From Octopus vulgaris (Eukaryota), in the NCBI GenBank assembly GCA_951406725.2, contig OX597822.1:18228001-18292000 (forward strand): a stretch of 64,000 nucleotides of DNA, written 5' to 3'. Of the stretch, positions 7,490 to 61,267 are shown piece by piece (the stretch's first letter is position 1; each line of letters starts with the position of its first letter). The notes below the pieces were generated by a model. It was given only the letters and a program-made list of their open reading frames with translations, searched no databases and was not told the DNA's origin. Made by a program: the position numbers and the translations under genes.

Positions 7490-7539
<50 letters not shown>

Positions 7540-7815
7540 TCAAAAAGGGGGTCGAATTAATTAATTGTTAATAAATTCGACCAAGCAGTATTCGGTATGT
7601 AAAGACCATTTACGGTATATTTGAAGTATTGATTTATAAAAATATGGTAAAGGAAAAGAATTCACTTTACCACATACCGAATTTTTCAGAAATAGCAGCC
7701 AAAAATTTGGCTATTTCTTCAACTGCAAATAAAAGTCTCCAGACAATGCATACTCAGAAAAATAACTCACATAGTATAAGGGAAAAACAATGAAAGATCA
7801 CATCCATATACGATA

Positions 7816-7877
7816 CCCGAGGACAGTCTGTTTCTGGATTTGTGGGTAAAACGCCACTTTTCCTTCATCAGCTCAGA
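7816..7877 (-). ncRNA. Type I hammerhead ribozyme motif
   Basis: TCTGAG-CTGATGA-AGGAaaaGTGG..CCACaaaTCCA-GAAAC-AGACT-GTC-CTCGGG; stem I UCUGAG/CUCGGG; GUC cleavage triplet. Confidence 0.8.
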
Positions 7878-7967
7878 GATTTCTTCTGATTTAGATTTGA
7901 AAATACTAAGAATCAAACACGGGTATGTTTGATTCTTAGTATTTTCAAATCTAAATCAGAAGAAATC

Positions 7968-8029
7968 TCTGACCTGATGAAGGAAAAGTGGCGTTTTACC
8001 CACAAATCCAGAAACAGACTGTCCTCGGG
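7968..8029 (+). ncRNA. Type I hammerhead ribozyme motif (mirror copy)
   Basis: Same motif on the other arm, with one stem I mismatch (TCTGAC). Confidence 0.75.
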
Positions 8030-8216
8030 TATCGTATATGGATGTGATCTTTCATTGTTTTTCCCTTATACCTATGTGAGTTATTTTTCTGAGTATGCAT
8101 TGTCTGGAGACTTTTATTTGCAGTTGAAGAAATAGCCAAATTTTTGGCTGCTATTTCTGAAAAGTTCGGTGTGTGGTAAAGTGAATTCTTTTCCTTTACC
8201 ATATTTTTATAAATCA

Positions 8217-8219
<3 letters not shown>

Positions 8220-8256
<37 letters not shown>

Positions 8257-8324
8257 GTATGTATATATATATATATGTATGTATATATATATATATGTAT
8301 GTATATATATATATATGTATGTAT

Positions 8325-8358
<34 letters not shown>

Positions 8359-8405
8359 GTATATATATATGTATGTATGTATGTATATATATATATATGT
8401 ATGTA

Positions 8406-8439
<34 letters not shown>

Positions 8440-8446
8440 TGTATAT
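8220..8446. repeat. Compound (TA)n/(TATG)n microsatellite
   Basis: Direct inspection. Confidence 0.95.
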
Positions 8447-8800: not shown

Positions 8801-8810
8801 TCACTTGTCA

Positions 8811-8844
<34 letters not shown>

Positions 8845-8924
8845 GTATGTATGTATATATATATATATCTATATATATAGACACACACATAGACTTACAT
8901 ATATACATACATATACTTACAATT

Positions 8925-9080: not shown

Positions 9081-9498
9081 CTATGTATGTGTGTGTGTGT
9101 GTGTGGGTGGGTGGGTGTATGTATGTTTGTATGGGTGTATATATGTATGCATGTATATATGTGTGTACATATTACATGTACATCTATATAAATATACATC
9201 TAGACATACATGTATATCTATGGAAATACATCTATACATATACAGCTATATATATATACATATATATATATATACATCCATATATATATACATGTATATA
9301 TAAATAGATGAGTGTATTTTTACCTTGTTAACAATTAACACGGAAAAATAAATAAATAGTTACCAGGGCAGCAAAAATCTCACAAGTAAAGATGTTGTAA
9401 CTCCTTGTTTATAAAGGTTGAAACTTCGTGTTTACGTTGAATATTTTGAATAATATGAATAAAAAATGGAGTTAACGCAGGTTTAAACAAGTATTTTT

Positions 9499-9584
9499 AC
9501 TTTCGACACATGTTTCGAAAATTCCACTGATACTATTCAAAAGAATAAATGGTATAAACAATGCAATCTTCTCTTCGGGAAAGT
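9499..9584 (-). ncRNA. Hammerhead motif in the PLE pseudo-LTR (CCGAAGA core variant)
   Basis: ACTTTC-CCGAAGA-GAAGATT...AATTTTC-GAAAC-ATGT-GTC-GAAAGT. Confidence 0.72.
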
Positions 9585-9787
9585 GAAAAAAACGAAACTC
9601 GTCAATACAACATTTTAGCAAAATATGATGGATTTGTATAGTGATAGACAGAATGCTATTAATATTGTTTAAAAAAAAATGTTATATGATATAACGTCAT
9701 AAGTAGCTAACAGAAAGAGTAGGGATATTAATAGTGAATGTTAAATATAAAGGAAATTAAAGTTTAAATTATATATAATGATAGAGA

Positions 9788-11700
9788 CTACTTATATGCA
9801 CTAAATGTATGTTTCTGCCAATGCTTACATCTGTATGCTCGTTCTATAACCGTGTTTAGTAGAGTATTTTTAGAAAAAATAATGAAAAATAGCTCAGAAT
9901 TGCAGAGAAGACAGAATTTCTTGCCTTTGTCATATGGTATCGAAATTGAGAGGATCAATCATTCTAAATGAAATTGTTCATTGTGGTCTTTTAAATCCCA
10001 AATCAGTTTGCTGAGACTGGTACTATTCCGTTTATTTCTATCCCTAAATGTTGAGTAATGGATAGAAATTCTTTTAGATAACTCTAACGATGTGCTTCCA
10101 ATGTAAAATCATACTTTATTACGAGTACTGATTATACACTGGTATATAGAATTTTTAATCTTAGAGTTACTTGACATAAATTTAATTCTATTGGAATTGA
10201 CTTCAGATACAATAACCTTGTTATTAATATTTCTAGAGGGTTGGATGGTATTAGCTAAATTAATGTTAGTATTAGTAAATGTATTAATATTTAACAGTTT
10301 GTTATTATGAGAAGATATAATTTGCAAGAGATTTTTTGTGTTTGAAAAACCTATCCTAACCTTATGTGAATTAATTATAGAGTAATATCTAGAATTGTTT
10401 GGAAAATTCCTAGCAATAGCTTGACGAAACAGCAGTGGGAGATTAGATTTAATTTGTCTCCCGTAAGGAATTATTAACCAAATATTTTTACTAGTATTCA
10501 TAGCGTAATTACTTCTGAAGGTGTTATATTTACTTTTAGATCGATAATAGGGGATTAAATAAGGGTTATCTGCCTTCATTCGCTCTGTATCGGTGTGTAA
10601 GTTATGTTTGTTATCAATAATTCTTTTATGACTAGAAATCTTATCTACATTATTGAATTTACAATTAGACTGAGCAGAATCAATGTAGAAATTTTTTCTG
10701 TATAACCTGCTTTGATTAAGGCAGAGTTATAGAATTCAGCGTTATTATCAACATTAGCAGATAATTTAGATAATCTAAATGAAATATTCCTAACTAAATT
10801 CTTAGTAATTGCTCCAGGATGATTACTAAATTTGCTAATGTACTTAAGATTGGTCAACGGTTTAGGATATGGGAAGTAAGAGTCACTGTGTAAATTAAGC
10901 GTAATATCTAAAAAGTTGGCCTTTGTCATATCGTCATCAAAAACGATTTTTAAGCCCATTCTACTGAAAAAATTAACTAAACTATTCTTAACTTTTTGTA
11001 CCTTTTGGTTGGAAACATTTTGGAGGTAAAGTAAACAATCATCACGATATAGACCTCCATAAATGTTAGGGAACTCTTCAGCCATTTCAAAAAGAATATA
11101 TATACAGACCAAATCAGCTATCTGTGCTGAATCAGAACTTCCCATTGGTATATTGAAACTATCTGGTGTGTCTTTACGGACCCACAACTTATCAAATTTA
11201 ATAATAGATCTTCTGGCTGCCAACACAACATTAATTTCTTCTCAGGTGAGACCAGCTTTGTTATGAGCAAGCCAAAGTACCTTATTAAGTACTATTGGAT
11301 TAATAGACGAATAAAAATTGGAGATATCAAACTGGATAAACTTAGTACTCACCTTACTGTTAATAGACCTAAACCAGTCAACTACTTCAAATGAATTAGT
11401 CCATAAACTAAGTTTTAATGTTTTGATTAAATTAGGAATATATTTATCTAGTATATTTTTACTAAGGATACCGATGTCAGAGCTAGAAGGGCAGATAAGC
11501 CTTAATGATGGGTTAGTAAAAAAATTTGGTTTGTGATCCTTCAAAATGAACCGAGGTTGCTTAGGAACAAGTGGTTCTGTCTTCATTTGTAGGTTATATT
11601 TCTCCATGATTTTCATAGCCTCAATGTTGGCTTTCTTAAGTATTCTTTTATCAGCAATTTTATACTTTTTCTGAATTTCTTTTTTAAGTAATTCCAAATA
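9788..11700 (-). pseudogene. PLE RT plus GIY-YIG endonuclease ORF, disrupted
   Basis: Reads as one frame once TGA stops at 11242, 10109 and 9959 and a frameshift near 10690 are bridged; C-terminus SIYQCII..FYIGST..STSLSKLIWDLK..FCLLCNSE..LLN..CKH. Confidence 0.88.
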
Positions 11701-11803
11701 ATATAACATTTTTTTTTAAACAATATTAATAGCGTTCTGTCTATTGCTATACAAATCCATCATTTTTTGCTAAAATGTCGTATTGACGAGTTTCGTTTTT
11801 TTC

Positions 11804-11889
11804 ACTTTCCCGAAGAGAAGATTGCCTTGTTTATACCATTTATTCTTTTGAATAGTATCAGTGGAATTTTCGAAACATGTGTCGAAAGT
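11804..11889 (+). ncRNA. Hammerhead motif in the inverted pseudo-LTR (CCGAAGA core variant)
   Basis: Same motif; 6-bp stem I ACUUUC/GAAAGU; GUC triplet. Confidence 0.72.
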
Positions 11890-11954
11890 AAAAATACTTG
11901 TTTAAACCTGCGTTAACTCCATTTTTTATTCATATATATATATATATATATATA

Positions 11955-13106
11955 TATACACTTTTTAATCCGAGGGGAGGCAATGCGAGCAGCAACTAAA
12001 AGAGCACTACAAAATCCACAGAAGGATCAAACACATACATATATTCATATATTCATTTATATCTACAGAACAGATATAAAGCCCGACGTTTAGAAATATA
12101 TAGTAATATATAAATATATAAACATCATATAAAAATATATAAATATATAAGAGAATCAATGTTGCATATATAACAACTTGAATTTGCGCTTAAAGTCGTA
12201 AAACATTTGGTATAAATTTGTTAAATTAAACATTTGGGGTAATAAAACATACAAAGACATATTAAAAAGACGAATTAAAATTCCAGAGAAAAATACATAG
12301 AAGATAAATATACAAATTTACAAAAATACATAAAAGTTCATCTACAGGCCGTTTCAGAGATGCGCCAATTAATATGAAACATATCATATATTTAAAATTG
12401 ACACTCCCCTCGTCAGGATGTTTTTTACACACAACACATGCGAAAGACCAGACATTACGTACTCCCCAAAATTCTCATAGATACTGAATGCTACTTTATA
12501 AGCATATAATTCAATCTAGCAGCCATAGTAAATGGTATGCACACAGCTCCATCTGAACTAATTCACTTCTGCACTTAATTTAATTTTAATCTTTTAATTT
12601 CTCCCATTCATGCAAAGCTACATATTCCAGTTCAAGTCCTTGATACATTTTATACTAATTGCTATTTTTTCTTTTAATTGTTATATTACAATTTAATTAC
12701 CATACTTTAGTTTTATTTTAATAACTACTTACTATATTTACTATATTTAATTCAATTGTTATTATTACCTCTAACTTTTATTGCTATTTTTATTTCTAAA
12801 TTTCTTATGGAACGTCGAGTGGATCTTATGTGTACAATATATTTTTATATGATGTTTATATATTTATATATTACTATATATTTCTAAACGTCGGGCTTTA
12901 TATCTGTTCTGTAGATATAAATGAATATATGTATGTGTTTGATCTTTCTGTGGATTTTGTAGTGTCCTTGTAGTTGCTGCTCGCATTGCCTCCCCTCGGA
13001 TTAAAAAGTGTATACAGCTCATTTGAGCACTACTATTCCAGTCTGTTATATATTTTTAGCGTTGTTGTCACTAACGATCTCAAGATATAACTTTATATTT
13101 TGTAAC
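11955..13106. mobile_element. Non-coding fold-back PLE-type insertion with a hammerhead
   Basis: 11955-12140 is inverted at 12837-13014; ~90-bp tail to 13106; TA tracts on both sides. Confidence 0.75.
12339..12420 (-). ncRNA. Type I hammerhead ribozyme motif
   Basis: CATC-CTGACGA-GGGGAGTGTCAATT...AATTGGCGCATCTCT-GAAAC-GGCCT-GTA-GATG; 14-bp stem II including G-U pairs. Confidence 0.8.
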
Positions 13107-13523
13107 ATATATATATATATATATACATCCTTATACATACAATAGAGTGATGTTTTTGTTTCACTATTAACACGTAATACTGAAATAGTGGAGAAGATAT
13201 GATATTGCTGTGGGCTCGCCCTTGGCAAAAAGTTAAACATTTTTTTTCCCATGACACTACATGGACCCTAATTAAGGCATGTCTAAAATTTGATTGAAAT
13301 TGGTTGTGTAGTTCTCAAGTTTTAGGGAATCATAGTGGAGAAGATATGATATTGCTGTGGGCTCGCCCTAGGCAAAAAGTTATAAATTATTTTTGCCAAT
13401 GACACTCCCCAGACCCTAAGTAAGGCTTGTGTAAAATTTGAATGACATTGGTTGTGTAGTGCTCAAGTTTTAAAGAAACACACAGACAGACAGACAGACA
13501 CACATTCTCAGTTTTATATATAT

Positions 13524-13526
<3 letters not shown>
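13107..13526 (-). mobile_element. Non-autonomous Helitron 5' segment with two ~146-bp tandem units
   Basis: Starts A|TCTATATATATAAAACTGAGAATGTGTGTCTGTCTG like 60029; the unit repeats at 13186 and 13332; no 3' terminator seen. Confidence 0.7.
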
Positions 13527-13586
<60 letters not shown>

Positions 13587-13588: not shown

Positions 13589-14790
13589 TGAGAATGTAGG
13601 TGTGTCAAAGCACATGGTTGGATATATAGAAAATAGAAAAGAGTGAAAAAACTACAGAAGGCTTGTTTTATAAGGTTAAAGAATATATTTAAGTCGTTAT
13701 GTTAGAAGAATGTTATAAAATTTTGCATATAGTAACATAGCTTTTGAAGAAATTACCGGTTTCGTGTTAACTTTTCTAATATCTCAAATGTCTTTACCTA
13801 CGTCATGTCATGTCTTCATTATGCAGTGCAAAGAAGAGTTCCAGGCAGGGGGAGGTAATAAGCGATTTCTTCCGGTATAAGGGAGATAATCGCTTTATAT
13901 TTCTTTTCCCTTATTTAATGAGATGAGTTTCTCTGTATAAGAATGTTAGGATGGTTAAGTTCAGGCTTATATTTTTCAATGAAGAATGTTTTCTTGTTTA
14001 ATCTAATTTGTGTCGGTGTTCCAATAGCACATTGATAGAATGGAAAGATTAAAAATTGTGGAAGTAGTTGCTTTGCACATTTCTCAATATGCTCACTGAA
14101 GGGTATCATTCTGTATTCTCGGAATGCAATCTGTTGTCGATGCAGAGTGCATCTACATCTGAGTGATAATCCCGTGGACCCCACGTAGTTTTGGTGGCAG
14201 CCCGAGCACCTTATGACATAAATTATGTTTTCAGAAGCACAAGTAAAATTAGATTTGATCGTAGTTTTAGGTCCTCCAGGTTAGGTGTGTGTATGTATGT
14301 CTTTGGTGATTTTTTTAATGGTTTCATTTATAATTTGGCTTTTATGTATTTTTGGAAGACCATAGAAGAAGCTAGTTTTGCATTTAAAGTTTGTTAGAAA
14401 GTCAATCTCTTTGGTTGTCAGTTCCTTTTCATGGGGTTTAATTAGTGAGGAGAGAGTGTTCATTATTTTTTGCAGGGTGTAGTTGGTGATTTTTTCATAA
14501 TGTTGATTGTCATCAAGCAAGGAAATTACAAGATTTCTATAGTATAATGTATCCATTATTACAACTGTACTTCCTTTGTCTGCTTCCTTAATGGTTATAT
14601 CTTCATCATTTTGAAGTTCTATCAGTTCCTTCCATTGACTTCATTTTGGTTGGCTCTGCATGGAGTTGGCGTAAATTTGAGTCCTTTTGAGAGGATGTCA
14701 ATTTTTATGTTAGAGAGAAGTTTGGTTGAAAGGTTGATTATCTTCAGTTTTTCCTAGACAGTTAACTCAAATTTTAGCACTGCACAATTT
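13587..14790 (-). mobile_element. Penelope-like element, Neptune-like, with the RT core deleted
   Basis: ITIKEADKGSTVVIMD..FYGLPKIHKS is joined near 14280 to KSNFTCASENIIYVIRCSGCHQNYVGSTG..LHR..FFIEKYKPELN (GIY-YIG). Confidence 0.85.
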
Positions 14791-14971
14791 GGTTTACAGT
14801 TTTTCTGATCCTCTTCTAATAGACGGTTTCGCTTGTAGTTGAAACTAGTTTGGTATATATGTAAATAATGTATTTTAAACATTTATAAATTTTTGAAATT
14901 TAGATGCATTTTCAACAAAACATTTTCCTACATTTTTTTCCTGTGGGGAAATACCACCCCCTCTTTTGTTA

Positions 14972-15872: not shown

Positions 15873-16050
15873 TATAAGGCCAATAAAGCTCCTATTCTTC
15901 CCTTATGCCAGCCACAGTCCAATGATGCTGACTGGTGAACCAGTTTTTCAGAGTTGCATCAATTTGTAGCGTTATGATATAGGATGAATATAATAATAAC
16001 AACAATAATCCTTGGATGGAATTTATAAACACTTAATGCATTGCTACAAG

Positions 16051-16374
16051 TGTTTCCACAAATCACATGACTCTTAAAATCACAGTCCGTATTCCTGGGA
16101 TGATTACAGTTTAGTCCATAGTATCCATGGCCATCCAGTTGATCATCTTCATGGATTAATTTCTTCAGGTGATATAACATTAATGGATGTATACAACAGA
16201 GGGATGCTTAACTCAGTCAACTTTCATATTTGTTAAAAGGGATAAACATCCCTCCCTTAAACATCCATTAATGTTATATCACCTGAGGAAATGAATCCAT
16301 GAAGATGATCAACCAGATGGCCATGGATACTATGGACTGTGACTTCAAGAGTCATGTGATTTGTGGAAACACAT
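16051..16374. repeat. Inverted repeat (16051-16190 vs 16261-16374)
   Basis: Arms are reverse complements apart from a ~29-nt indel and a few substitutions. Confidence 0.85.
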
Positions 16375-16386
16375 GTATATAGTATA

Positions 16387-16782
16387 CTAGCAGTATCACC
16401 CGGCGTTGCTCAGGTTTGTTTCGACCCTTTAGAATTGGAATTTTTTAACAGTAAAAAATTTGCATTCTGTAGCTTGTTATTCTCTTTAAGTGAACATTTT
16501 TCTGGTTGAAATACACCGAAAAATGACGACACAGCAGTAAAAAAATCGTAAAAAATAGGGATTTTCATAGAAAAAAAAAGCACCTTTTTGATGTAAATAA
16601 TTTTTGGTGTTAACATGGTCCGATTTCAATTTTTTCTTCTATGGAAGGAAGAGTAAGCCTTCTTCTATCATACTCTCAATTTTAGTCAACTTGCGCTGCA
16701 GGGACGCGGAGGAGATAGTGTTAGTTGAAGGCTACCAAACCTGCCATACACAGACAACTTCAGTTTTATATATATAGAGAGA
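16387..16782 (-). mobile_element. Non-autonomous Helitron (~396 bp)
   Basis: 5' TC (TCTCTCTATATATATAAAACTG); 3' hairpin CCTGAGCAACGCCGGG then ..CTGCTAG; inserted between A and T with no TSD. Confidence 0.85.
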
Positions 16783-17703: not shown

Positions 17704-17731
17704 TACATATATATATATATGTACATACATA

Positions 17732-18592
17732 TGAGGTCTGATCGGTAAGTATCCAGACCGTTGCCATAGTAACAAAGCTAAAGCACACAGAGTAGAGCTG
17801 CTTGGCACAGATTAACCTTGACCCCTGCTGTGCATGTCCACTAAGTTTTAACATTCCAGATCACTTCTGCTGTTTACAGCAGTGCTTTGAAGTAATGTGT
17901 GTAACATATGATCATCGTATTGACCATGACAGAGAACGTTGTCATGGCGATACTTGCAGAAAGTGTATGAAGAGGAGTGTATGAGGCACACACAAGTGTA
18001 CGAGTGTTTCAGACATTTCCAAGATGGCCGAAAAAATGTCGCTAAGGACAAACGTTCTTAGGGAACTGAGAAAAACACAGCAGGATTGAGAAAAATATCA
18101 TTGATGTGCTTGCAGCTTTGATGAGAAATCATGGAATCACCATTTGTGAGTAATCAGAGGATGTGCAGATTAGTTACGGTTCAGTTCAGTCCATTATCAC
18201 TGAAGATTTGGGTTTGAGACGGTTGTCTGCTAAGTTTGTGCCAAAACTGCTTTCAGCTGACCGAAAAGATACTCGGGGGTTTCAGTTGCACAAGAATCCC
18301 TGATTGTGTTGAGAACAATGGAAAGTTTTTGAAAACTTTGCCTAGGCCTCTGAGCAGGTATTGCCAAGCATTTGGCAAAATTTGATGCAGATTCTCTGCT
18401 CAACTTCCTCTATCATGGTCAATGTGATGAACGCATGCTACACATGATACTTCCAAGCACTGCTGTAAACAACAGAAGCAAGCTAGAATGTTAAAACTTA
18501 GTTCAAGGTCAATCTGTGCCAAATGGCTTCACTCTGTGTGCTTTCTCTTCATTACTATGGCAACAGTCCAGATACTTATTGATCAGATCACA
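17732..18592 (+). mobile_element. Mariner deletion derivative with ~200-bp inverted ends
   Basis: TA-flanked; ends are reverse-complementary; internal LQKVYEEECMRHTQVYECFRHFQDGR is a mariner N-terminal HTH-like segment. Confidence 0.8.
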
Positions 18593-18967
18593 TATGTATA
18601 CATACAAATATATAAGAGAGAGAGAGGGAGAGAGAGAGAGAGAGCAGTAGATAGCTTGCTAGCTAGGTAGATATCACATATGTGTAGTTATTAGTTGATA
18701 TCAATTTACATATCTCATACATTATGCTGAGATTTTTATATGATAATTTAATTGATGCCTTCTTCTCTCCATCCTCCACTTCTTCCCCCCTCATCCTCAC
18801 TACTCACTATCCCCCACTCCCCCTTCCTTTTCCACTCTTTCTAGAGAATAAAATAAAAATACTTTTTTTTTATATATTCTATGGTGTATGCATATGGAAC
18901 TTAATTATTTTTGTGTCTGCATTCTTGCATCTGCACACATGCACATAGACATTCTTATATACATGTG

Positions 18968-20844: not shown

Positions 20845-22522
20845 CAGTGAATTAAATTGTGTTTCAAATGAAAAAGGCTCCCTGATCATTGGTTGATGGT
20901 ACAGCACTGCTAATATTGGTTTAACTTATGCCAGAGATGACATTATTAGTAGACATTAAGGCCTTGGTCATCACATTATGAGCTTTATTTATTATAGATA
21001 AAACTACAAGTAAATCTAAAAGGAGAAATATAATATTAAATGACCTGAGAAAGAGGAGGAGGAGGAGGAGCTGAATTTTAAAAAGGGCAAGCTAAGTTTG
21101 TTGTAATGAAGGGTTGGCATGGAAGGAAATGTGAACTGTAGAGAATGTCTGGGGATTGTTGTTTGATATTAACAGAATCATCATCATCGTTTAACGTCCG
21201 TTTTCCATGCTAGCATGTGTTGGATGGTTCGACTGGGGTCTGGGAAGCCAGGAGACTGCACCAGGCTCCTGTCTGATCTGGCAGTGTTTCTACAGATGGA
21301 TGCCCTTCCTAACACCAACCACTCTGTGAGTGTAGTGGGTGCTTTTTACATGCCAGGGGAGGCTGGCAATGGCCACAATCGGTTGGTGCTTTTTACGTAC
21401 CATTGGCACGGAAGCCAGTCAAGGCTGCACTGGCATCGACCACATTTGGATGGTGCTTTTTATGTGCCACCAGCACAGGTATCACAACTACAATTTCCCT
21501 TTGATTTTTTGATGCTGATATACTTAACTCAATAGGTCTCCTCAAGCACAGCAGGTCACCCTACAATCCAAGGTAAGCACAGCAGGCCGTCCTGCGATCC
21601 AAGGCACTTTGGATGGGCTGGGGCTTCTATGTGAAGCTGGTGCAGGAAACAACCATGAACTCATACTATTTGTCGGGTCTTCACAGTCACAGCATATCTA
21701 GACACAAAGCCACTAATAATGAACACAAAGTGCAGATATGGCTATAGTCACAGTGATGTATGTGTGTGTGTGTTTGTGTATCTATATATCTATGTTTATG
21801 TGTATGTTTGTGTGTGTATGCACATATGCATGCACACATGAAGTTGTTTTTTCATTCCTTCACATGAGGCAGTCTGAGCTAAAAACATTGTCATTGTGCT
21901 TAAATTCCTGGTGAACTTTGTTGCATAGTTCTACAGTTTTGAAGCTTAGTGGATAAAAAAAGTCTTTCACTTGAAAACCACATCGTTGAGGTTTATGACA
22001 AGAAGGGCATCCAATTATAAAATATTGTATCCACGAAGTATCCATTTAACCTATGCCAGTATAGAAAAGATGGACATAAAATGAATAAACATATGAAAGA
22101 GCACTTCTTTTTTCTTTCTTTCACCAATTTCTAAGATTGAACTTGTAATTGTTTCTAGTGAAACTGAGAAACTAAGACAACATCTCGCAAACCAACAATC
22201 TATTGAATATTAATGGCTTTAAGTAAGATAACACTTGATTAGTTCTGCTGGACATTTTTGTATTCAGCTCAGTTTTCTCTATTGATGTGCAGCCATGAAC
22301 ATCTGCTTGCTGTAGCATTTCAGGTCATTTAATATTATATTTCTCCTTTTAGATTTACTTGTAGTTTTATCTATAATAAATAAAGCTCATAATGCGATGA
22401 CCAAGGCCATAATGTCTACTAATAATGTCATCTCTGGCATAAGTTAAACCAACATTAGAAGGCTGTACCATCAACCAGTAAGCAGGGAGCCTTTTTCAGC
22501 TTAAACACGATTTAATTCACTG
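20845..22522. repeat. Inverted duplication ~203 bp (20845-21048 vs 22320-22522)
   Basis: Direct reverse-complement match; the inner halves are nearly identical. Confidence 0.9.
21178..21700 (-). mobile_element. RTE 3'UTR fragment
   Basis: (CAT)n followed by GTTTAACGTCCG..., three repeat cores and a ..TATGCTGTG..GAAGACCCGAC ORF end. Confidence 0.82.
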
Positions 22523-25640: not shown

Positions 25641-25723
25641 CATATATATGAGTGTGTGCACAAAGGAAAGAAAAGGGCAATCAATACATTTAGTAGGAGT
25701 TCCGTGTATTATTATTGAAAACA

Positions 25724-26509
25724 GTTTGAATTGGTTCCATGCAGACTAAAGTTTCCCTGGTTTCTAACAAAAACCCATCTCTTTCAGGCTTAGATTACTG
25801 AAGGATGAGGCAAGAAAGTCCAAGAAGGCTGCTGGAAAATGGGCTGCTATTGGTCAAGGTGGGTCGTCACATGGTGTTGTTAGAGGAAGATCAATTTTCA
25901 GTGAGAGCAGTTTCATTAGAAAGGTGAATTTCTTGGACTGTGTGGCTGGATCGCAAGCTGGTGACACCAAAGTGTCAGGGAGCCAGCAGACAACAAGGCC
26001 ATGGAGTGAGTGAGGGTGTGTGTGTATGCTTTTAGTATTTATATGTGCAGGTGTGACAGATGTATGCTAGTGTGGCAGATCTGGTATTTGTGTGTGTCAA
26101 TGTGACAGATGTATGCTAGTGTAGTCGCAACAGTGTTGTGGGGTGGCGTAGTGAGAAAGCATTCGATTGAGGTCTGGTGGCATGGGGGGAAGAGGAAGGA
26201 GTATACATATATGGACATGTGTGTAGTGTGTGAACGTGTGTGTGTGTGTGTGTGTGTGCATGTGTGCACATATGCATGTATGTGTTTTTGGCTGGTGTGT
26301 GTGGGTGTATATACCACATACCAAAATTAGAAAAAGGTGTTTAACTCCTTTTTCTAATTTCGGTATGTGGTAAAGCAGTTAGCTGAAACCTAATTATAAT
26401 TATGTAGATAATTTTACCTATAAAGGTTATTTTAATGTCCCGATCTACTTGGTAGAATTGTTAATTAATTAATTTAATTGATTAATTTTACCCTTCTATT
26501 ATCAATATG

Positions 26510-26541
<32 letters not shown>

Positions 26542-27580
26542 TACATATATACATGTGCACACACACATATATACACACATGGGCACACATATACATACAT
26601 ACACAAATATACATATATGTATGTTTTTGGTGTTCAAGTATGTGGGTATGTTAGATGACAGTGATTGCAACACTACGACTGGGTGGGGAGGGTGAGAAAT
26701 GGGTGTTGGACTGAGGTTTGGTGATGCAGGGGAAGGGATGAAGGAGCAGTGTGCATACTTAGGTGTGTGTATTTGTGTATATGCATATGTATGCGTGGTT
26801 GTGTGTAGGTGTGTGTGTGCACATAGGTGTTTGTGGATGTGTGTGTTTATGTGCACACGCCATGTTTATGGAGGTGGAAGTAGGGGTTGTAGGGGATGTG
26901 TAAGGTTGTGGGGTCAGTCTGCATAGACACTGGTGGTTGGAAACCCTGTCTTTGGTTTTGGAGAAGCCAACGTTAAGATGGTATATCTGGGTTGTTGGCA
27001 GCCAGTGGTTTGAAGTTCACCAGGAATCCCTCTGGTAGCAGCAATAGGATAGTTCATATCTCTTGCTGACTGATACTGCAGGATGATGAAGGATATGCAG
27101 TCTTTCACAGAGACAGAGCTGGAAATTACAGGTGCCAGGTGAATAAGGGGACACCATATTGATGGTGGTCCATTCAATGCTGGGTGTTGCATTCCAGAAA
27201 TAACAGGAATTCTTTCTATCCCTGCATCTAAGCAAGTGCATGTACTCTGTGTACTTCCCCATGAAACCATTGGCTGCCACACCTATGTAGTGTCATGTGA
27301 TACCACTGGTTGATGTGAGGGTGGGTCCGTAGACGACAGCACTTGAGCTTCCTGTCCAATCATGTGGTCCAAACGTTTCCTGGTTCTAATGAAACAGCTG
27401 TTGTTGATTCATTGGTCTTACACTAACAACACCATGTGACCCGCCTTGACCAATAGCAGCCTATTTTCCAGTTGCCTCCTTGGACTTCCTTTGCCTCTTC
27501 CTTTGGTAATCTGAGCCTGAAAGAGATGGGTTTTTGTTAGAAACCAAGGAAACTTTAAGTTGCATGGAGCCAAATCAAAC
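25724..27580. repeat. Diverged inverted pair ~235 bp (25724-25959 vs 27346-27580)
   Basis: For example TTTCTAACAAAAACCCATCTCTTTCAGGCT vs AGCCTGAAAGAGATGGGTTTTTGTTAGAAA. Confidence 0.8.
26312..26506 (+). mobile_element. Short fold-back PLE-type 3' end (61-bp palindrome plus tail)
   Basis: Palindrome at 26312-26372; TTCGGTATGTGGTAAAG and the tail CTTGGTAGAATT..AATTAATTAATT..ACCC resemble the 7536-8219 element. Confidence 0.6.
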
Positions 27581-28276
27581 CATGTTAAATTATATATACA
27601 TGCATGTATAATTAGTTTATTTTCTGTAGATGTGTGTGTGCACATAAATGCACAAATGTATTTATTTATACATGCATATGTGTGTGTGGGTGTGTGAAAG
27701 CATGTGATTAAATCAGAGCTCAACATTTTACTTTCTTTAATCTGTTCATTTATTTCAATATTCTATTATTTTTAACATTTTTTTTTTTTTGTATTCTAAA
27801 ATAACCATTTGTACATAAAATGGCCTCTGCAGTTCTGTAATATCTGCTTCAACTGATGATGACAAAATACCAAAAGACAAAACCAAAAAATCTAGATTTG
27901 ATTATTCAAGAGTTGTGGTCCTCTACGATTGCTCCACTTATTCATGTCATTGTGTATCAAAATGAAGACTTTGATAAATATCAAACCATCTTCTCATCTG
28001 CCATACAATCTCGTTAAGCATCGTAATCCTTCTCTTTCGACTATATTCTCACTGAAATAGCTCTTTACTTGAATCACTCTGTCTATTTCCCTCCTCCCTC
28101 TCTCCTCTCTTGCTCTGTCTGTCTATCTTTATTTCCTTCTAACAAGCCATCCATTTATCTCTCCATTCATACGTCTGTCTACCTATTTATCTCTATGTTT
28201 ATCTGTCTCTCCCCCTCCCCATATTTCCGGGAATTTTCTATTTCTGTCCATCTATTTGTCTTGTTATCAGTCCGTC

Positions 28277-30564: not shown

Positions 30565-31450
30565 TATGATTATTGTCAAAAAGTTCCCAGATTGGTTATG
30601 TTTAATACAAAATACCTTATTTACCTAAATTTTACCATCATCTCTTTCGAAATAGTCACCTTGCACAGCAATACACCGGTTCCAGCATTCTTGCCACTTT
30701 TGGAATCTGACCTGGAAGTTGTTTTTCATAAGTGAGTTGAGGCCTTTGGTGATTCGTTCTGGATCTTGACAACGATGTTTAAATGGCAACCTTTACATCA
30801 GGTGCTAAATCTGGTGAATAGAGCAGGTGCAGAAGTGATACCATGTTGTTTTGGGTGAGAAACTCACAAATAAGGAGAGCTTGGTGACAAGGTGCGTTGT
30901 CGTCGTGAAGAATCCAGTTCTTCACACTTCACAGATTCCGTTGCTTTCACTGAATGTCTTCCGACAAATGTTTTCAAAAGTCACAGCAGAACTCTTGATT
31001 GATGGTTGGGCCCTGGAGGATGAAGTTTTTAATGCACAATACCATATTTCTGGTGGGTGGAGTGACAATCATGGCAGGTCTTCCAGATCGCTTATCTTCC
31101 AGGGACATTCTTCCACTTTTGAAGCACCTGTGCCACTCAAAACATTCTGCACAACCCATTGCCTCATCGTCACCATAATCTTGCCAAAGCATGCTCAGTG
31201 TCTCTGTAGCAGACTTCCCAAGTTTAATGCAAAATTTCATGTTGGCTTTTTGTTCCTGTTCATGACAAAATTGCAGATGACAGCACACATGTGGACATAA
31301 ATTTCACAACTTGCAAAGTAAACACAGTGATGTCACTCAACACGCTGCCTCGTGAAAGTCACTTCTGGCTTTCACTGTGCAATGACCATGTGCCACCATC
31401 TGTTGACATGCTGTAGAACTACTCTGAGAACGTTTTGATACCACCTCACA
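30565..31450 (-). mobile_element. Mariner transposon remnant, internally deleted
   Basis: EQKANMKFCIKLGKSATET..FEWHRCFKSGRMSLEDKRSGRP, then WILHDDNAPCH..YSPDLAP motifs. Confidence 0.88.
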
Positions 31451-36607: not shown

Positions 36608-37067
36608 TAAAATTATACTCATGTCACATAAATGTAAATCTAATGTACAGATTAGTAATTTAATTATTGAGCATTAATTGAGACAGCTGTAAGAAGCGAA
36701 GATGACCAATTTGTTGTTAATAAAAAATAATTATTAACTTCCTAATCATCATTTATTTTCTTCTTTTAAATATATATATATATATATATATATATCATAA
36801 GGTTCTAGAAAGATATGGCAGTCCTTTCTCCCTCTACATAGAAAACAACTGGAAGAGATACCTAGATGACTGTTTCATTCTTTGGCATGAAAATATAGAG
36901 AAACTTAAAGAATTCCTAGCACTTTTAAAAGGACTTGACGTAAACATCCAATTCACAATGGAATATAGTCAGCAACAACTCTCCTTCCTTGACATCCTCA
37001 TTAATAAATCTAATAACGCAACAGATATATATACTATAAGCCTACAGATTCCAAGCAATATCTTCCA

Positions 37068-38314
37068 CTAGCAGTATCGCCCGGCGTTGCTCAGGTTGTA
37101 AGGGAAATAACTATATAAGCATTTTTAGAGAGTTATAGCCAAAAAATAGCAAAAAAATGCATTAAAAATTGAAAAAAAATTAAGGTAAATTTTTTTTTAA
37201 ATCGTTGACACATCGTAGATATTTTTAGAGAGTTACTTCCCTTATATAAAAGCGAAAAAAATGCATTAAAATGGAAAAATATGATGGTAAATTTTTTTTA
37301 AATCGTAGACTCATCGTAGACGCGCACTAATACCCAGAAGGGCTCGATATGAATCACGACTATAAGATACCCGGTTTTGGTTAAACTGCACTGCAAAATG
37401 TGGGAGTAGTTACGAATCTAAATCGTAGGAGACAGACACACAACTTCACTCTTATATAAAGATGCTTTTTCTTTTCAGTCATAGAGTTAGATTTATGAAG
37501 GTCTTCAGTAGAAAATCCTTCGAATTCTGACTCGCTGCTTGATATAATGAAATTCGTATCCATTTTTTGTCAGAATTACAAATTTTGAAAACACAATAGG
37601 AACAAATTTCGGAAAAAAATCTCCCATAATTCACGGAATTAAAATTACACTTCGATTTTTGTACAAAACTGTATTTGAAGTGTTTACGAAGTATAATACG
37701 TGTTTTCACGAATGTACTAAAGAGATTTACTCTGATATTCTCATTTAAATATGAATAGGTAAATTCGGGCGGTTTGGTAACGAAAGGGTTAAACGGATGC
37801 ATACATAACTATATATAAGTGTCGTCTGTTTATACATAAACACTGTTTCATACTTTCAGTTTAGTCTTCCTCAAATCACTCTGTCGCTATTTACTCTCTT
37901 CCAAGAACATTTTCACTCACTCTTATCTCTTAGCTTGCCATACATTTTACTCATGTATCTATCAGCGTGATAGACAGAAACAAATATTACATCGCCAACG
38001 CCATCGCATTCTATTGTCTACCTGTCAACACACACGCAGTGAATTAGTTTCACTTTATTTGTTGCACACTGTGTGTGTGCGTTTGCGTGTGCTGTAAACC
38101 AGACTAAGAAAAGCATTTGACATACACACCAGAATGTGAGTTTTCTGTAAATTTTGCTTAATTGGAGTTTAAATTTTAAAAACTGGACCTGGCATGACGC
38201 GATGCATTGTACTCTTAAAACTGCTAGGTAAATTGTAATTGAAGAAATCCTATATTGTAGATTTTTATAACTGACAAAGGGAGGCAGATAAAATCTGCCT
38301 TTTATAATAAGAGA
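37068..38314 (-). mobile_element. Composite non-autonomous Helitron
   Basis: 5' TCTCTTATTATAAAAGGC at 38314; second internal 5' end at 37462; 3' hairpin plus CTAG at 37068; removal restores the PLE frame at A|T. Confidence 0.88.
37463..37792 (-). mobile_element. piggyBac-like left end captured in the Helitron
   Basis: TTAA-CCCTTTCGTTACC terminus followed by an acidic ORF start, MDTNFIISSSESEFEGFSTEDL. Confidence 0.55.
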
Positions 38315-39677
38315 TTCAATTCATGCCACCCCAGACACACCAGAATGAATATCCTCTTCAATCTAGCAAAAAGGATATGTACTATAGTTTCTAATGCAAA
38401 CACCAGAGACACATGACTACATGAACTAAAAGATACCCTCATCACCAGGAACTACCCACCTTCACTAATTGACATATGCATTCAACTCAACATCCAGGAA
38501 CTCAGACATCCTAAATTAAAGAAAAATTTACGAGCAAAAGCCTTACCATACATCTCCACACACAACCCTCTCAACAATGAAGCCTTCGACACCATCCTCC
38601 AAAACATAAAAAAGGACCACAGAATGAACTTAATCCTCCAAACACACACTATTATAAAAAGCAAGAGACAGCCCAAATCTATGAAAAGTCTCCTAACACA
38701 AGCTCACATATGCTCACCAACACAGAAGCCGACAGTAAAAAAATGTGGAAGACCCAATTCTGGGATATGCAATTATCTAATTGAGGGATCAGAGTTCTCC
38801 TTCAAACAGGGACAACGTTTCACAGTGAAAAGCAACTTCACATGTGCTTCGGAGAACCTGATATACACACTAACTTGCTCTGGGTGTCAAAAAAATCATT
38901 TACGTAAAAGAATGGCCCTGCACAGATCCCAGATAAAAATTCCCCAAAACAGAAAAATAACATTCAGCCAACACATAGATATTTGCACCAACAACAAAAC
39001 TCCAAGCTTCAGGATTTTTCCCCCCTACCAATTCAGGGACGATACAACCTGGAGCCAACGAATTAGTAAAGAAACTCTCTTTATTACAAAATACAGGCCC
39101 CTTCTGAACGCATCTACAACAAACGATATATCCACCTCAGCCTTAGAATAACACAAATACACATGCAAATATTACATTCCTAAGAATCCATTAAAAATCA
39201 GCCCCAATCACTGCTATAATCCATAACTTTAAATCATCCAACACCTCACTACTTTCACTCATTCATATTCTCCCTTCTCTTCTTCTTCTTCTTATTCTTC
39301 TCTTCCTCCTCTTCTTCTTCTCCCCCTTTTCCTTCCTTCTCCTTCCTAACTTTATCACTAATGCTTTTTAGTAGAACACCTATGCAAATTCTATAAACAA
39401 AACTTTCAATAGAAATATTTTCATGAATTGAACAGCAACTGCTAGCCTCCACTGACCATTCAAAATACTACAATCAAGGCACTCCCAAATTCTTCCTTCT
39501 TCTCCTCCTCCTCCTTCTTCTTTCCTACTGAGAATTCATAAGGGGGAACCCACAAGAGTAAACATGAGAGACAGAGAAAGGCAGAAACAAGGAAAATGCC
39601 ACTTATATTTGAACACTATACAAATATTCTTTTAAAAAGAACTTTTTTAATTTTTCTAAATTTAATCATTTAATTGT

Positions 39678-41851: not shown

Positions 41852-41910
<59 letters not shown>

Positions 41911-41993
41911 GGTCCCGGGTTGATTCGGGGTTAACCACAGTAAATAAGGTACTCAATACATAGCAGAGTAAACTTAATTTATTATATAGAAGG

Positions 41994-42044
41994 AGCTTCT
42001 ACAGGACTAGAACTGTTTCATTCAAGAGAAATCATCAGGAAGCT
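41994..42044 (-). ncRNA. Type I hammerhead ribozyme motif (mirror copy)
   Basis: Identical sequence on the opposite strand, overlapping at the central AGCT. Confidence 0.82.
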
Positions 42045-42091
42045 TCCTGATGATTTCTCTTGAATGAAACAGTTCTAGTCCTGTAGAAGCT
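42041..42091 (+). ncRNA. Type I hammerhead ribozyme motif
   Basis: AGCTTC-CTGATGA-TTTC(tctt)GAAT-GAAAC-AG(ttctagtc)CT-GTA-GAAGCT; 6-bp stem I, 4-bp stem III, GUA triplet. Confidence 0.82.
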
Positions 42092-42100
42092 CCTTCTATA

Positions 42101-42139
<39 letters not shown>

Positions 42140-56588: not shown

Positions 56589-56589
56589 G

Positions 56590-56812
56590 TACCCAGTGCT
56601 AGCTATGGATACGTATGAGGTGCAATGGAATAACAGGAAGATTAGCAGAGAGTAGTCTTGGTATGTGACAGATGTGCCTATACAATAAATACTAAGACTG
56701 TACAGGAATAATTGCTTATCATACATATATGTGTATGTATATATATATATATATATATATACATACACATATATGTATGATAAGCATGTATGTATATATA
56801 TGTTTATATATG

Positions 56813-56885
<73 letters not shown>

Positions 56886-56997
56886 GTATGTATGATAAGC
56901 AATTATTCCTGTACAGTCTTAGTGTTTATTGTATAGGCACATCTGTCACATACCAAGACTACTCTCTGCTAATCTTCCTGTTATTCCATTGCACCTC

Positions 56998-57000
<3 letters not shown>
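56590..57000. repeat. Inverted repeat with 114-bp arms (56614-56727 vs 56887-57000) around a microsatellite
   Basis: One mismatch seen; a third 15-nt partial copy at 56772. Confidence 0.9.
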
Positions 57001-57049
<49 letters not shown>

Positions 57050-59975
57050 TTAGTTAGATAGAGTGATAGATAGATAGATAGATAATCAACTACGTATGTA
57101 CTGAGTCACACATGCAAGGTTATATGAAGAATATATGATCAATGATAAGATAAAGTAGACATTTTTCTAAGACTGTGTGAATGTACTGAATGGCTTCTGC
57201 AAAAAATTCTTAATGAATTGAAATTTTCCCTCAGCTGAAGAAAGAAAAAATATCCTGGCAGGATTCGTTAACTACACACACAGAAATTTATGAATAACTT
57301 AATACATTAGCTGAGTAAAAAACATCATCCACATCGTCTTTACTAAATTGATATAAGTTGGTCAAGAAGTTTGTTTTGAAACTACATGCTTCCAGACATG
57401 AACTTTGAGAGAACTTTTGCAAGGTAGAATAGGGTAAGGTTGTTGGGGCCCCTGTTTGGGGAGTGGAGCCTCCAAAGCCCCCCCTCCCTTTGAAGACCTC
57501 CAGGTTCTTCTTTAGATCCCCAAACTAAAGTACTGACTGAAACTGTCATCACTCTTTCATAGGCCTTGATTCCATGGTTTGGTCCAGTTGCATGGGACTT
57601 TTGCAAGTGCTTTCTACTCTTGCCTTCAGGTTGACTAATACTTTACAAGTAATGTTGCCTCAAAGTTTTTCCTATGGAATGGACACAAATATTTGCTCAT
57701 ATGAACATTTTGTTTTTGTTTCTCAACCATGTGCACATCCGTACGAGTAATTATCTTCGATTAAAAAAATTCAGTTTCATCATCAAAACCGTGAAGGCTC
57801 ACATTTTGCTTTCGTTATTCAAGTTACAAAATTGTGTGTTCAGACAAGCACACTGCTTAGAGAAGTCATTGCTTGTGAATGGAATTTCATAGATGGAAAT
57901 TATGCAGAAGTCTGTCGTGTGTGTGCACACATACATGTGTGTGTTTGTGTGTGTGTATATGTATGTATATATGTGTGTATGAGTGTGTGTTTCTATATGT
58001 GTGTGTGTGTGTCCCCATGTCCTTGTCTGTTTTTAAGTGTGTTGTTAAAATGTGTGCCTGAGTGATTCAATAAATACAGATCAATAAAATAATTGAGTGG
58101 AATTAATACCGGGGATAGATGTGATCACCATGGCAAGAGTCCAAAACTGAAACTAGTAAAAGAGTAAAAATAACAAAACAAAACAAATAACAAGATAATC
58201 TCATATAAAGAGTAAAGGATTTTTCTGTTTCCCACCATTTAAAAAAGTTTTTTATTCTTTAATTTTTTACTTTTTGAGAATTTCTTCTCAAATACACCCC
58301 TTTATAAAGTCTGAACCATTTTCTTTTCCACATATTCTTCACTAAAATATACTTGCAGCTAGATGACAAGCGGCCGAGTTGTTAGCAATGCCGGACAAAA
58401 TACTTAGTGGCATTTTGTCCATCCCAACATTCCAAATTTAAATTCCACCATAGTCACCTTAGGCTTTCATCTTTACCGAAATAGGTACCAGTTGCACAAT
58501 TGGGTCTATGTAATTGACTAGGCTCACCACCAAAAAGGCAGGCCTTGTGCCTGGTAGTACAAATAATTGTCTTGCATCATTTGTTCAAGTTCCATATTTT
58601 CTGAATTCATTGTTTCAGGGCTTTTCACTGTCTCAGGGCTGATAAAATGAAATACCAATCAGATATGAAGGCACATGGCCCAGTGGTCAAGGTGTTACAC
58701 CTACGATCTGGCAATCATGGGTTCAGTTCCTGAACCAGGTGTCATTTTGTGTTCTTGAGCAAAACACTTCACTTCATTTTGCTGAAGTACTGTGTGGTGA
58801 ATAGACCCAACATTTCCTACACATGTCATAAAAGGCAGCAAAAAGACGTCGAGGTAGGATTTTCACTTCAACCTTGTAAAATCCTCTCACCAGCAACAAC
58901 TATCCAAACAGACCCATGGTTTGGAAGGTTGTTGCCTGAGTGGTACAAAGGTGTCATCTGCCAGGGGTCGTAAGGAATCTCTAACAAATGGTGGATGCAG
59001 TGGTGCACTGTTACAGTGCATGCTCCCATGCTGCTGCTGCTACTACCACTACTATTACTAAATACAGGAGTTGATAATATCAATTGACCTTCTTCCTTCA
59101 AAATTGCTGGCATTGTGCCAAATTCAGAAATTATTATTTTCCACCATTCAAACTGAATATATGATTAATTATCCGATAAAATATACATTGATAAAATTAT
59201 ATCTTGCTCTAATAACTTCAATAAATTAAGAATTAATTAAAAAAATAAGATTAATTCTTATTCCTAAGGTGAAATCTAAACATGTCCATTGATAGCAATG
59301 ACCTTGCAAAAAAAGATCAAATTTCCCTTGAAGCGGAGGAATGAAATTATTTTTTTAATTAATTCCCAATTTATTGAGATTTTCACTGCTTTTCTTTGTG
59401 AGTCACAAATGAATGCTGTTGCGTTTTTTTTTTCCTCTCAAACTACGCAGAAGATATCAAGTCATTAAGATTTTTGACTGCGTATGTATATGTGTATATG
59501 TGTGGACTCATGTCTCTGTATGCGTGTGTGTGCACTCATATGTCTGTAATATAAAAGTATATTTTATCTTCTAATTGGTTGGATAGTCATTAAATATGCT
59601 TGAAAATATTACAACTTTGTTTCTAGGGTAAACTATCTTTTTGCATGGAATATGTTCAAAAGAGTATCCAGGAGACCTGGCAAGAGACTTTTAAATGAGG
59701 AAATAACAAAAAACAAAAACAATAATTAGAAGGGACTGGAAAAAAAAATACTTCAATTGTATTATTATATTTGAGCAATTCAAACCCTTTTCCCTTTTTA
59801 CTGGTTTCAGTTATTCAGCTGATGACATGATGGGCTATGCAAAGTTTTTTTTTCTCTGTTTTGGCATGGTTTCTATAGTTGGACGTCGTTTCTATTGCCA
59901 ACCATATTACAGTGTGTACTGGGTGATTTTTTTCAAGGCACCAGCACCTTCAAAGACAGGACAAAGTACCCCCTG

Positions 59976-60021
<46 letters not shown>

Positions 60022-60028
60022 CTTGACA

Positions 60029-60288
60029 TCTCTCTATATATAAAACTGAGAATGTGTGTCTGTCTGTCTGTCTGTCTGTCTGTGTGTTTCCCTAAAACTT
60101 GAGAACTACACAACCAATTTCATTCAAATTTTACACATGCCTTAATTAGGGTCCATGTAGTTTCATGGGCAAAAAAAATGTTCAAATTCTTGCCTAGGGC
60201 GAGCCCACAGCAACATCATATCTTCTCCACTATTTCAGTATTACATGTTAAAAGTGAAACAAAAACATCTCTCTATTGTATGTATATG

Positions 60289-60319
<31 letters not shown>

Positions 60320-61267
60320 TACAAAATATAAAGTTATATCTTGAGATCGTTAGTGACAACAGCGCTCAAAATATATAACAGACTGGAATAGTAGTGCTCA
60401 AATGAGTTGTATATACTTTTTAATCCGAGGGGAGGCAATGCGAGCAGCAACTACAAGGGCACTACAAAATCCACAGAAAGATCAAACACATACATATATT
60501 CATATATTCATTTATATCTACAGAACAGATATAAAGCCCGACGTTTAGAAATATATAGTAATATATAAATATATAAACATCATATAAAAATATATTGTAC
60601 ACGTAAGATCCTCTCGACGTTCCATAAGAAATTTAGAAATAAAAATAGCAATAAAAGTTAGAGGTAATAATAACAATTGAATTAAATATAGTAAATATAG
60701 TAAGTAGTTATTAAAATAAAACTAAAGTATGGTAATTAAATTGTAATATAACAATTAAAAGAAAAAATAGCAATTAGTATAAAATGTATCAAGGACTTGA
60801 ACTCGAATATGTGGCTTTGCATGAATGGGAGAAATTAAAAGATTAAAAATTAAATTAAGTGCAGAAGTGAATTAGTCCAGATGGAGCTGTGTGCATACCA
60901 TTTACTATGGCTGCTAGATTGAATTATATGCTTATAAAGTAGCATTCAGTATCTATGAGAATTTTGGGGAGTACGTAATGTCTGGTCTTTCGCATGTGTT
61001 GTGTGTAAAAAACATCCTGACGAGGGGAGTGTCAATTTTAAATATATGATATGTTTCATATTAATTGGCGCATCTCTGAAACGGCCCGTAGATGAACTTT
61101 TATGTATTTTTGTAAATTTGTATATTTATCTTCTATGTATTTTTCTCTGGAATTTTAATTCGTCTTTTTAATATGTCTTTGTATGTTTTATTACCCCAAA
61201 TGTTTAATTTAACAAATTTATACCAAACTAGCACTATGACCCTGCAACGCCAGGTCATAAATGGTAG
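60029..61267 (+). mobile_element. Non-autonomous Helitron carrying PLE-derived, hammerhead-containing cargo
   Basis: A|TC 5' end; 3' hairpin TATGACCCTG-CAACG-CCAGGTCATA then GTAG|T; 60029-61227 is an inverted copy of 12206-13526; the flanks rejoin as one SINE-like repeat (compare 35961 onward). Confidence 0.8.
61013..61094 (+). ncRNA. Type I hammerhead ribozyme motif
   Basis: CATC-CTGACGA-GGGGAGTGTCAATT...AATTGGCGCATCTCT-GAAAC-GGCCC-GTA-GATG. Confidence 0.8.

Follow-up and report, generated by a model that had tools for sequence, protein, structure and literature searches.

Among described transposable elements, the Hydra clade of Penelope-like elements (PLEs) comes closest to the insertions reported here. 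Craig et al. (2021; PMC8557442) describe an inverted 5'-truncated copy and a tail of 30-40 bp at either of the insertion's ends, and, for the Hydra clade, (TA)n targeting combined with hammerheads. Their supplement gives (TA)n for 26/27 Hydra families, includes an Octopus bimaculoides family, and contains a Hydra family with an inverted 5' copy and a hammerhead on both strands; some hammerheads in File S2 have a U.U mismatch below stem II and a palindromic stem III of 4 bp. Arkhipova et al. (2013; PMC3846280) found palindromes where the inverted copies meet, and Cervera and de la Pena (2014; PMC4209133) found minimal hammerheads in pairs, one on each strand and 100-700 bp from each other. When a Poseidon PLE was purified, it cut and extended both strands, two start sites bounded its tail, and hammerhead mutants still inserted in vitro (PMC11167929). 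Retrozymes of the type without long terminal repeats (non-LTR) are tandem units with a hammerhead in each (PMC7229834; bioRxiv 2026.07.22.740005). We analysed 64,000 nucleotides (nt) of Octopus vulgaris DNA (GCA_951406725.2, contig OX597822.1, positions 18,228,001 to 18,292,000, forward strand), called the window below, which is 35% GC, microsatellite-rich, and contains several fold-back insertions of a related kind.

Fold-back insertions in (TA)n tracts

Inverted duplications were detected by self-comparison of the window. Five distinct insertions (E1, E2, E3a, E4 and E5) had inverted arms, a one-sided tail and TA-type microsatellite flanks. They are given here with a second copy of E3, E3b, and two further fold-backs, E6 and E7.

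7536-8219, unstranded: E1, fold-back insertion in (TA)n, both arms reading outwards in the element sense
7536-7626, minus: E1 tail, 91 nt, on the left arm only
7920-7925, unstranded: E1 fold-back junction, 6-nt spacer
9306-11935, minus: E2, 5'-truncated Hydra-like PLE, with tail (9306-9452), 3' end and inverted tail-less copy (11698-11935)
9791-11721, minus: E2 broken frame of reverse transcriptase (RT) and GIY-YIG endonuclease, with three in-frame TGA and one frameshift
11959-13106, minus: E3a, 5'-truncated PLE 3' end, with body 12836 to 11959, inverted copy 12837-13010 and 96-nt tail 13011-13106
12771-12836, minus: E3a last 21 endonuclease codons and stop, with CxH motif
60320-61227, plus: E3b, second E3 copy, equivalent to 13106-12206, with hammerhead 61013-61094
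41908-42110, unstranded: E4, 203-bp fold-back, a perfect 68+68 nt palindrome centred at 42042/42043
41908-41974: E4 tail, 67 nt
26312-26506, plus: E5, shortest stub, with 30-nt arms and 134-nt tail, related to the E1 3' end
56590-57000, unstranded: E6, 107-nt inverted arms around a microsatellite, with 24-nt extension and (GAT)n left flank
25705-27600, minus: E7, older fold-back, arms 25705-25921/27384-27600, 83% identical

In E1-E5 the tail stands on one arm only, and an inverted 5'-truncated copy is joined head-to-head, as in known PLEs. The tail lengths are 67 (E4), 91 (E1), 96 (E3a), 134 (E5) and 147 nt (E2). This matched the preliminary description, which had proposed insertions with (TA)n on both sides, inverted arms and a tail on one arm. 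It had also suggested a similar geometry without a ribozyme at 26312-26506 and 56590-57000; this is correct for the first (E5), while at the second (E6) the geometry is similar but nothing ties it to a PLE, and its membership in the set is doubtful.

PLE endonuclease remnants were found in E2, E3 and E7, and none in E1, E4 and E5. The claim that only one element has coding sequence was abandoned, since E3 opens with the last 21 endonuclease codons. The tail-less arm ends in TA or AT in 6/6 elements (E1-E6), with 2-4 nt matching (TA)n. At a background of 0.234 this gives p ~2e-4, and the 5/5 version gives p 7e-4. Within the window E1, E4 and E5 are single copy each.

We consider it likely that each insertion arose in one integration event, that several Hydra-like Penelope families targeting (TA)n gave rise to the set, and that every insertion consists of the 3' end copied twice in head-to-head order, including a predicted hammerhead where copying extended that far. 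In the short palindromes, both copies have most likely lost their 5' part, and the hammerhead is kept only if the truncation falls upstream of it. The elements are likely ordinary truncated end-copies of a known PLE group and not a new mobile RNA class. Because they belong to different families, the series from a coding PLE down to a ribozyme palindrome that was first proposed becomes a range of truncation lengths, with no line of descent. The alternative offered at that time, a by-product of PLE integration, is supported; an inverted truncated copy with a tail is already described in PMC8557442.

In the proposed mechanism, the GIY-YIG endonuclease would nick both strands of the (TA)n tract. 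One nick would prime complementary DNA (cDNA) from the RNA end and give the arm with the tail, and the other would prime 67-147 nt further in, at a short TA/AT match, and give the tail-less arm. The far ends of the two truncated cDNAs would then be joined, in many cases where a short self-complementary stretch occurs; palindromes of 6-8 nt, possibly there by chance, are seen at or close to the junctions of E2, E3 and E7. One long cDNA would give E2, E3 or E7, and two short ones E1, E4 or E5. Self-priming of one cDNA (PMC3846280) would give the same product.

The window elements resemble the canonical PLE unit (Penelope/Poseidon; Adineta Pen, PMC3846280; Anolis PAc, PMC11167929) in head-to-head ends, an optional tail at one end, junction palindromes and AT-rich targets. 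They differ in longer tails, in the TA match at the tail-less end, and in tails where no reading-frame start was recognised by eye. With the Hydra clade as described in PMC8557442 (Hydra-1_Obim, Penelope-13_HM) they share an RT with C-terminal GIY-YIG, no CCHH, the CxxC..E..N..CxH pattern, a short element, the (TA)n target, a 3' type I hammerhead with palindromic stem III and frequent stem II mismatch, and the inverted 5'-truncated copy. The families are new and Hydra-like, and the insertion unit is of the standard PLE kind at several truncation lengths. What is new is modest: the long tails, the TA microhomology at 6/6 tail-less ends and, probably, a Helitron-borne hammerhead. The set is a natural record of PLE integration, and its long family-specific tails with the TA match at the tail-less end lead to a testable model of second-strand priming.

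The arms of E2 (9453-9690/11698-11935) are 238 nt long with 97% identity. Its product matches a profile of 20 unnamed relatives at positions 122-706 of 709; the match begins at position 122, and therefore E2 is 5'-truncated at the junction. Homologs numbered 4,739 representatives at E<=0.001, the best with 43-44% identity and about 620-810 aa, and the only named one is an Octopus sinensis protein with 70% identity over 45% of the query. Pfam RVT_1 was weak (E 9e-4, below the cut-off). The YIG and CxxC motifs align with those of the relatives, and a PLE-type RT is joined to GIY-YIG as in endonuclease-bearing (EN+) PLEs. The endonuclease has the CxxC..E..N..CxH end without CCHH (alignment A4), a pattern present in 35/41 long relatives. 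The N-terminal RWK/DKT region lies upstream of the truncation; among the long relatives RW occurs in 23/41 and DK[TS] in 35/41. The linker cysteines CxCX5C (about 10190-10250, minus) are absent from E2, and the strict pattern occurs in 19/41 long relatives, so E2 is termed Hydra-like and not filed as a Hydra member. That an element without the linker zinc finger sits in (TA)n is relevant to the view that targeting is guided by this finger.

The in-frame stops of E2 at 11242, 10109 and 9959 (minus) are all TGA, and are probably decay. A selenoprotein reading was rejected, since a conserved Trp stands opposite one TGA in the alignment and there is a frameshift as well; no search for a selenocysteine insertion sequence (SECIS) was made. 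In the E2 tail, 9306-9370 (minus) has splice-donor/acceptor-like motifs, seen by eye, as in PLE terminal introns.

Predicted hammerheads and the short fold-backs

The hammerhead motifs of these elements, besides that of E3b, are as follows.

7816-7877, minus: E1 predicted type I hammerhead, stem I of 6 bp, A.A mismatch at stem II base, palindromic stem III
7968-8029, plus: E1 mirror hammerhead, first stem I pair mismatched
9500-9543, minus: E2 hammerhead-like remnant, mirror copy 11845-11888 (plus)
12339-12420, minus: E3a predicted type I hammerhead, long stem II
41994-42044, minus, and 42041-42091, plus: E4 two head-to-head predicted hammerheads, U.U mismatch at stem II base

The first, stricter descriptor found nothing in the window. 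With a relaxed type I descriptor, whose tolerances (mismatch or bulge at the stem II base allowed) were chosen after the candidates had been inspected, five cores were found (7871 minus, 12416 minus, 42038 minus, 42047 plus and 61017 plus), all in E1, E3a, E3b and E4 and with the type I core CUGANGA / GAAA / UH and stems I-III. In 100 block-wise dinucleotide shuffles 0.43 +/- 0.68 cores were expected with a maximum of 3, and 0/100 reached five. The descriptor check that had been suggested in advance thus came out positive, with tolerances set post hoc. A simpler pattern matched both E1 and both E4 copies, with 0 expected.

Type I hammerheads had been claimed for all four insertions named at first. 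They are retained for E1, for 11955-13106 and for E4, but E2 has the right half only; in neither arm is the first core box intact, and the descriptor does not accept it. The Rfam models, also named as a check, gave no hammerhead at E<=10 in three sub-regions (E1, E3a/E2 and E4), and a whole-window scan had none among the 150 of 304 matches listed. The best Rfam matches were sub-threshold microRNA models. Predicted stem III self-duplex energies ranged from -6.9 to -12.8 kcal/mol.

Insertion in (TA)n together with a 3' type I hammerhead, the Hydra-clade combination, is found in E1, E3 and E4 and is degenerate in E2. The U.U under stem II in E4 and the 4-bp palindromic stem III in E1 and E3 follow the hammerhead style published for Hydra in PMC8557442. 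By eye, none of the window hammerheads is identical to the one given there for Hydra-1_Obim.

The E1 arms (7627-7919/7926-8219, 293 nt) have 290 matches, 3 mismatches and 1 gap. In E4 the fold-back point is a 6-nt palindrome within stem I, and the two cores are 9 nt apart. In both elements the hammerheads point away from the centre, and transcription reading through the element therefore produces the complementary arm before the hammerhead. All four predicted folds have the core completely base-paired, and the whole E1 transcript is predicted to be a near-perfect hairpin (-521 kcal/mol). E5 folds back with a 1-nt loop, has its 3' end in common with E1, and has its fold-back point downstream of the hammerhead position; no hammerhead was found in it by the descriptor. 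It means that the plan needs no ribozyme. Our model predicts the E1, E4 and E5 stubs to be dead, with any hammerhead masked by the hairpin.

PLE remnants of Schistosoma mansoni (PMC4209133) likewise have two PLE hammerheads, one per strand, with about 100-700 bp between them. They belong to another PLE clade and host, and the E4 pair is closer. If the favoured explanation holds, this matters for annotation: TA-rich animal genomes would contain many short palindromes with two hammerheads, left by Hydra-like PLEs, that can be misread as microRNA precursors, miniature inverted-repeat transposable elements (MITEs) or retrozymes.

Two side observations concern E1. Its junction spacer plus one base (7920-7926, 7 nt) recurs 2 nt downstream of the predicted cleavage site, which may be chance. 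At 8078-8126 (plus), downstream of the hammerhead, splice-donor/acceptor-like motifs were seen by eye, as PLE terminal introns predict.

The recurring E3 junction and competing explanations

The arms of E3a (11959-12140/12837-13010) are about 180 nt, and the tail is borne by the shorter, inverted arm. The body is in frame at the endonuclease end in both copies and begins with CTH in E3a and CTR in E3b. Against the end of relative P0005, the 21 codons have 7/17 identical residues (BLASTP E=0.003, one hand-picked pair); the profile search itself did not report this piece. Placing E3 on the plus strand with an antisense hammerhead was rejected, as it is the minus strand on which the end of the endonuclease with its stop, the hammerhead and the native continuation are found.

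Four public runs (X1, X12, X22 and X23) were searched with E3 segment 12141-13184, and 16 of 2,294 records were listed. The evidence from X1 and X12 is contigs, which show presence and not absence; their depth is noisy and no measure of copy number, bins elsewhere in X1 varying up to tenfold. The raw DNA runs X22 and X23 had 3 and 0 matching reads, too few to count as a test. X12 is only guessed to be RNA, and its 49 contigs are not taken as evidence of expression. In X1, 2,239 contigs match E3 (200 at >=99%, 412 at 95-99% and 1,627 at 90-95%), so the E3 family is large and varied. Five X1 contigs run past 12836 into other sequence with a 30-nt consensus (agreement 0.71), and therefore 12836/7 is the truncation junction. 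One frame of this consensus is open, and its T, D and P are spaced as they are ahead of CxH in P0005.

Searches elsewhere were negative. The E3 pattern had 0 matches in metagenomes, and the E1 pattern had 2 with only 20-35 nt in common, which is chance. No related loci were found in viral contigs, nor with alignment A2, which was too divergent.

E3 also adjoins Helitron-type sequence.

13123-13526, minus: Helitron-type 5' part beside the E3a tail, A|TC start at 13526
60029-61267, plus: probable non-autonomous Helitron-type unit around E3b, TC start, hairpin 61238-61256, end GTAG|T

Beyond the tail, E3a and E3b have a flank in common; it starts with A|TC, as does a 390-bp unit at 16778-16387. 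E3b stops at the equivalent of 12206, and a hairpin of the same type as in that unit follows. Among the records listed, one X12 contig shows the Helitron-type 3' junction, with the same hairpin/CTAG junction at 12206, and the summed X1 contig depth, a noisy measure, falls there from 28,040 to 3,206 and 495. Compared with HLE1 Helitrons as described in PMC11417382, the E3b unit has the 5' TC after A and the subterminal 3' hairpin, but ends GTAG|T on the TC strand (CTAG|T on the opposite strand) instead of CTRR before T, and carries a PLE fold-back with a predicted hammerhead. Because of this end it is called Helitron-type and not filed as a Helitron member.

Probably E3 is one PLE insertion that was amplified afterwards as non-autonomous Helitron cargo, which would explain its recurring junction. 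We lean towards a 1.2-kb Helitron-type element having spread an intact predicted hammerhead to high copy number. The end motif counts against this cargo reading, as do the negative search for a hairpin on the other side of E3a and the skipping of the E3 5' flank as a repeat in the contig comparison. A further point against it is that this flank has diverged more than the body (6.0% and 1.2% between E3a and E3b). A Helitron with hammerhead cargo was not described in the literature we searched, as judged by titles and abstract starts. Neither tails of such length nor a mobile class of palindromes turned up in that search, which did not extend to Repbase or to most subscription papers.

As a separate observation, 16387-16778 (minus) is a complete 390-bp non-autonomous Helitron-type unit with A|TC, hairpin and CTAG|T, whose first 19 nt equal the E3 flanks.

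Several points weigh against single integration products. The E3 fold-back junction recurs in E3b and in X1 record 5 (51 and 83 letters either side, 8 differences in 134 nt); X12 record 14 also reaches it, but its 30 letters on one side miss the bridging rule by one. None of the runs listed a strand-change joint, which means that variety among junctions was not seen; this comparison covered E3, and for E1 and E4 unique junctions are only presumed. Between E3a and E3b the body diverges by 1.2% (11/898) and the flank by 6.0% (12/200, p=2e-4), which simple co-duplication does not predict. The tails are 67-147 nt, while those in print (PMC8557442) are 30-40 nt, and the TA match at the tail-less ends contrasts with the RT start sites in PMC11167929, which were not homologous to the cut DNA. 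E2 lacks the linker cysteines of the Hydra clade. E4 folds back 4 nt before the core, with both hammerheads just kept whole.

The preliminary description had asked whether fold-back junctions recur, as in a mobile unit, or are unique. For E3 alone there is a partial answer: its junction does recur, but E3b lies between Helitron-type ends, which makes rolling-circle carriage the likelier cause.

The strongest competing explanation is that some fold-backs (E4, 203 bp; E1, 684 bp; E3) are fixed non-autonomous units, transcribed whole and put back into (TA)n by a Hydra-type RT/endonuclease in trans. They would form a MITE-like double-ribozyme class distinct from tandem retrozymes, and, if this were true, a new class of non-autonomous retroelement. 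The E3 junction fits with it, being common to an X1 contig and both copies in the window while the family numbers 2,239 contigs, and independent insertions into copies of one Helitron family would give the unequal divergence of body and flank. The centre of E4 at the 5' edge of its hammerhead points the same way, and non-autonomous PLE derivatives and mobilisation in trans driven by the pseudo-long terminal repeat (pLTR) are known. However, the Helitron-type ends around E3b, the hairpin/CTAG junction shared by the X12 contig at 12206 and the fall of X1 depth there, the single copies of E1, E4 and E5, and the hairpin predicted for the whole E1 transcript all speak against it, and we regard fixed units as unlikely.

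It is still less likely that the palindromes are fold-back artefacts of assembly or library, or that they come from hairpin repair of a general kind with no connection to PLEs. Cruciforms can be extruded from (TA)n tracts, and the E4 arms are 100% identical, as such an origin would have it; but in E1, E2, E3 and E7 the two arms are not identical, the PLE plan is followed both in the asymmetry of the tails and in the outward orientation of the E1 and E4 hammerheads, and the E3 junction is present in an independent public contig.

A retrozyme-like class had also been proposed. With non-LTR retrozymes as described in PMC7229834 and bioRxiv 2026.07.22.740005, the window elements have in common that they are short, mostly non-coding, PLE-related and carry a type I hammerhead. 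The retrozymes are tandem head-to-tail repeats that yield circular RNA, whereas the window elements are single inverted duplications, and no direct repeat of any hammerhead unit was found in the window. Covariation of the stems, another suggested check, was not seen among the E3 copies, where the stem changes are one-sided and not compensatory. That hammerheads of the short elements excise a monomer, which is then circularised and reverse-transcribed, is hardly credible: the motifs exceed chance, 5/7 listed E3 stem variants keep pairing with no core change among 40 of 49 variants, and animal retrozymes derive from PLEs (bioRxiv 2026.07.22.740005), but there is one hammerhead per strand in head-to-head order, the core is fully paired in the predicted read-through folds of E1 and E4, E3 is a truncated coding element, E5 has no hammerhead, and the one-sided stem changes may come from an active parent.

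Other repeats in the window

E7, absent from the earlier list, retains part of an endonuclease of Hydra type (27349-27017, E 2e-11), each of its arms has a degenerate hammerhead-like core, and E5 is nested inside it. E6 contains a smaller hairpin (56714-56787). At 5373-5736 and 56614-57000, inverted repeat ends are joined across a microsatellite centre. The inverted pairs 5373-5736, 16045-16377, 17725-18599 and 20845-22522 had no descriptor match and no tie to PLEs. Among them, 20845-21048/22320-22522 is a 204-nt inverted repeat of 94% identity, 1.3 kb apart; it has neither a hammerhead nor (TA)n flanks and may be what is left of a DNA transposon.

At 13915-14900 (minus) and 36724-39151 (plus) there are two broken RT/GIY-YIG remnants of PLE type with a Cys/His-rich endonuclease, each beside (TA)n; we take them to be Neptune/Nematis-like. 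A remnant of an RT of the long interspersed nuclear element (LINE) type is found at 6573-7358 (minus; Pfam RVT_1, E 8e-11), and a remnant of the helix-turn-helix (HTH) part of a Mos1-type transposase at 30974-31303 (minus; E 2e-5).

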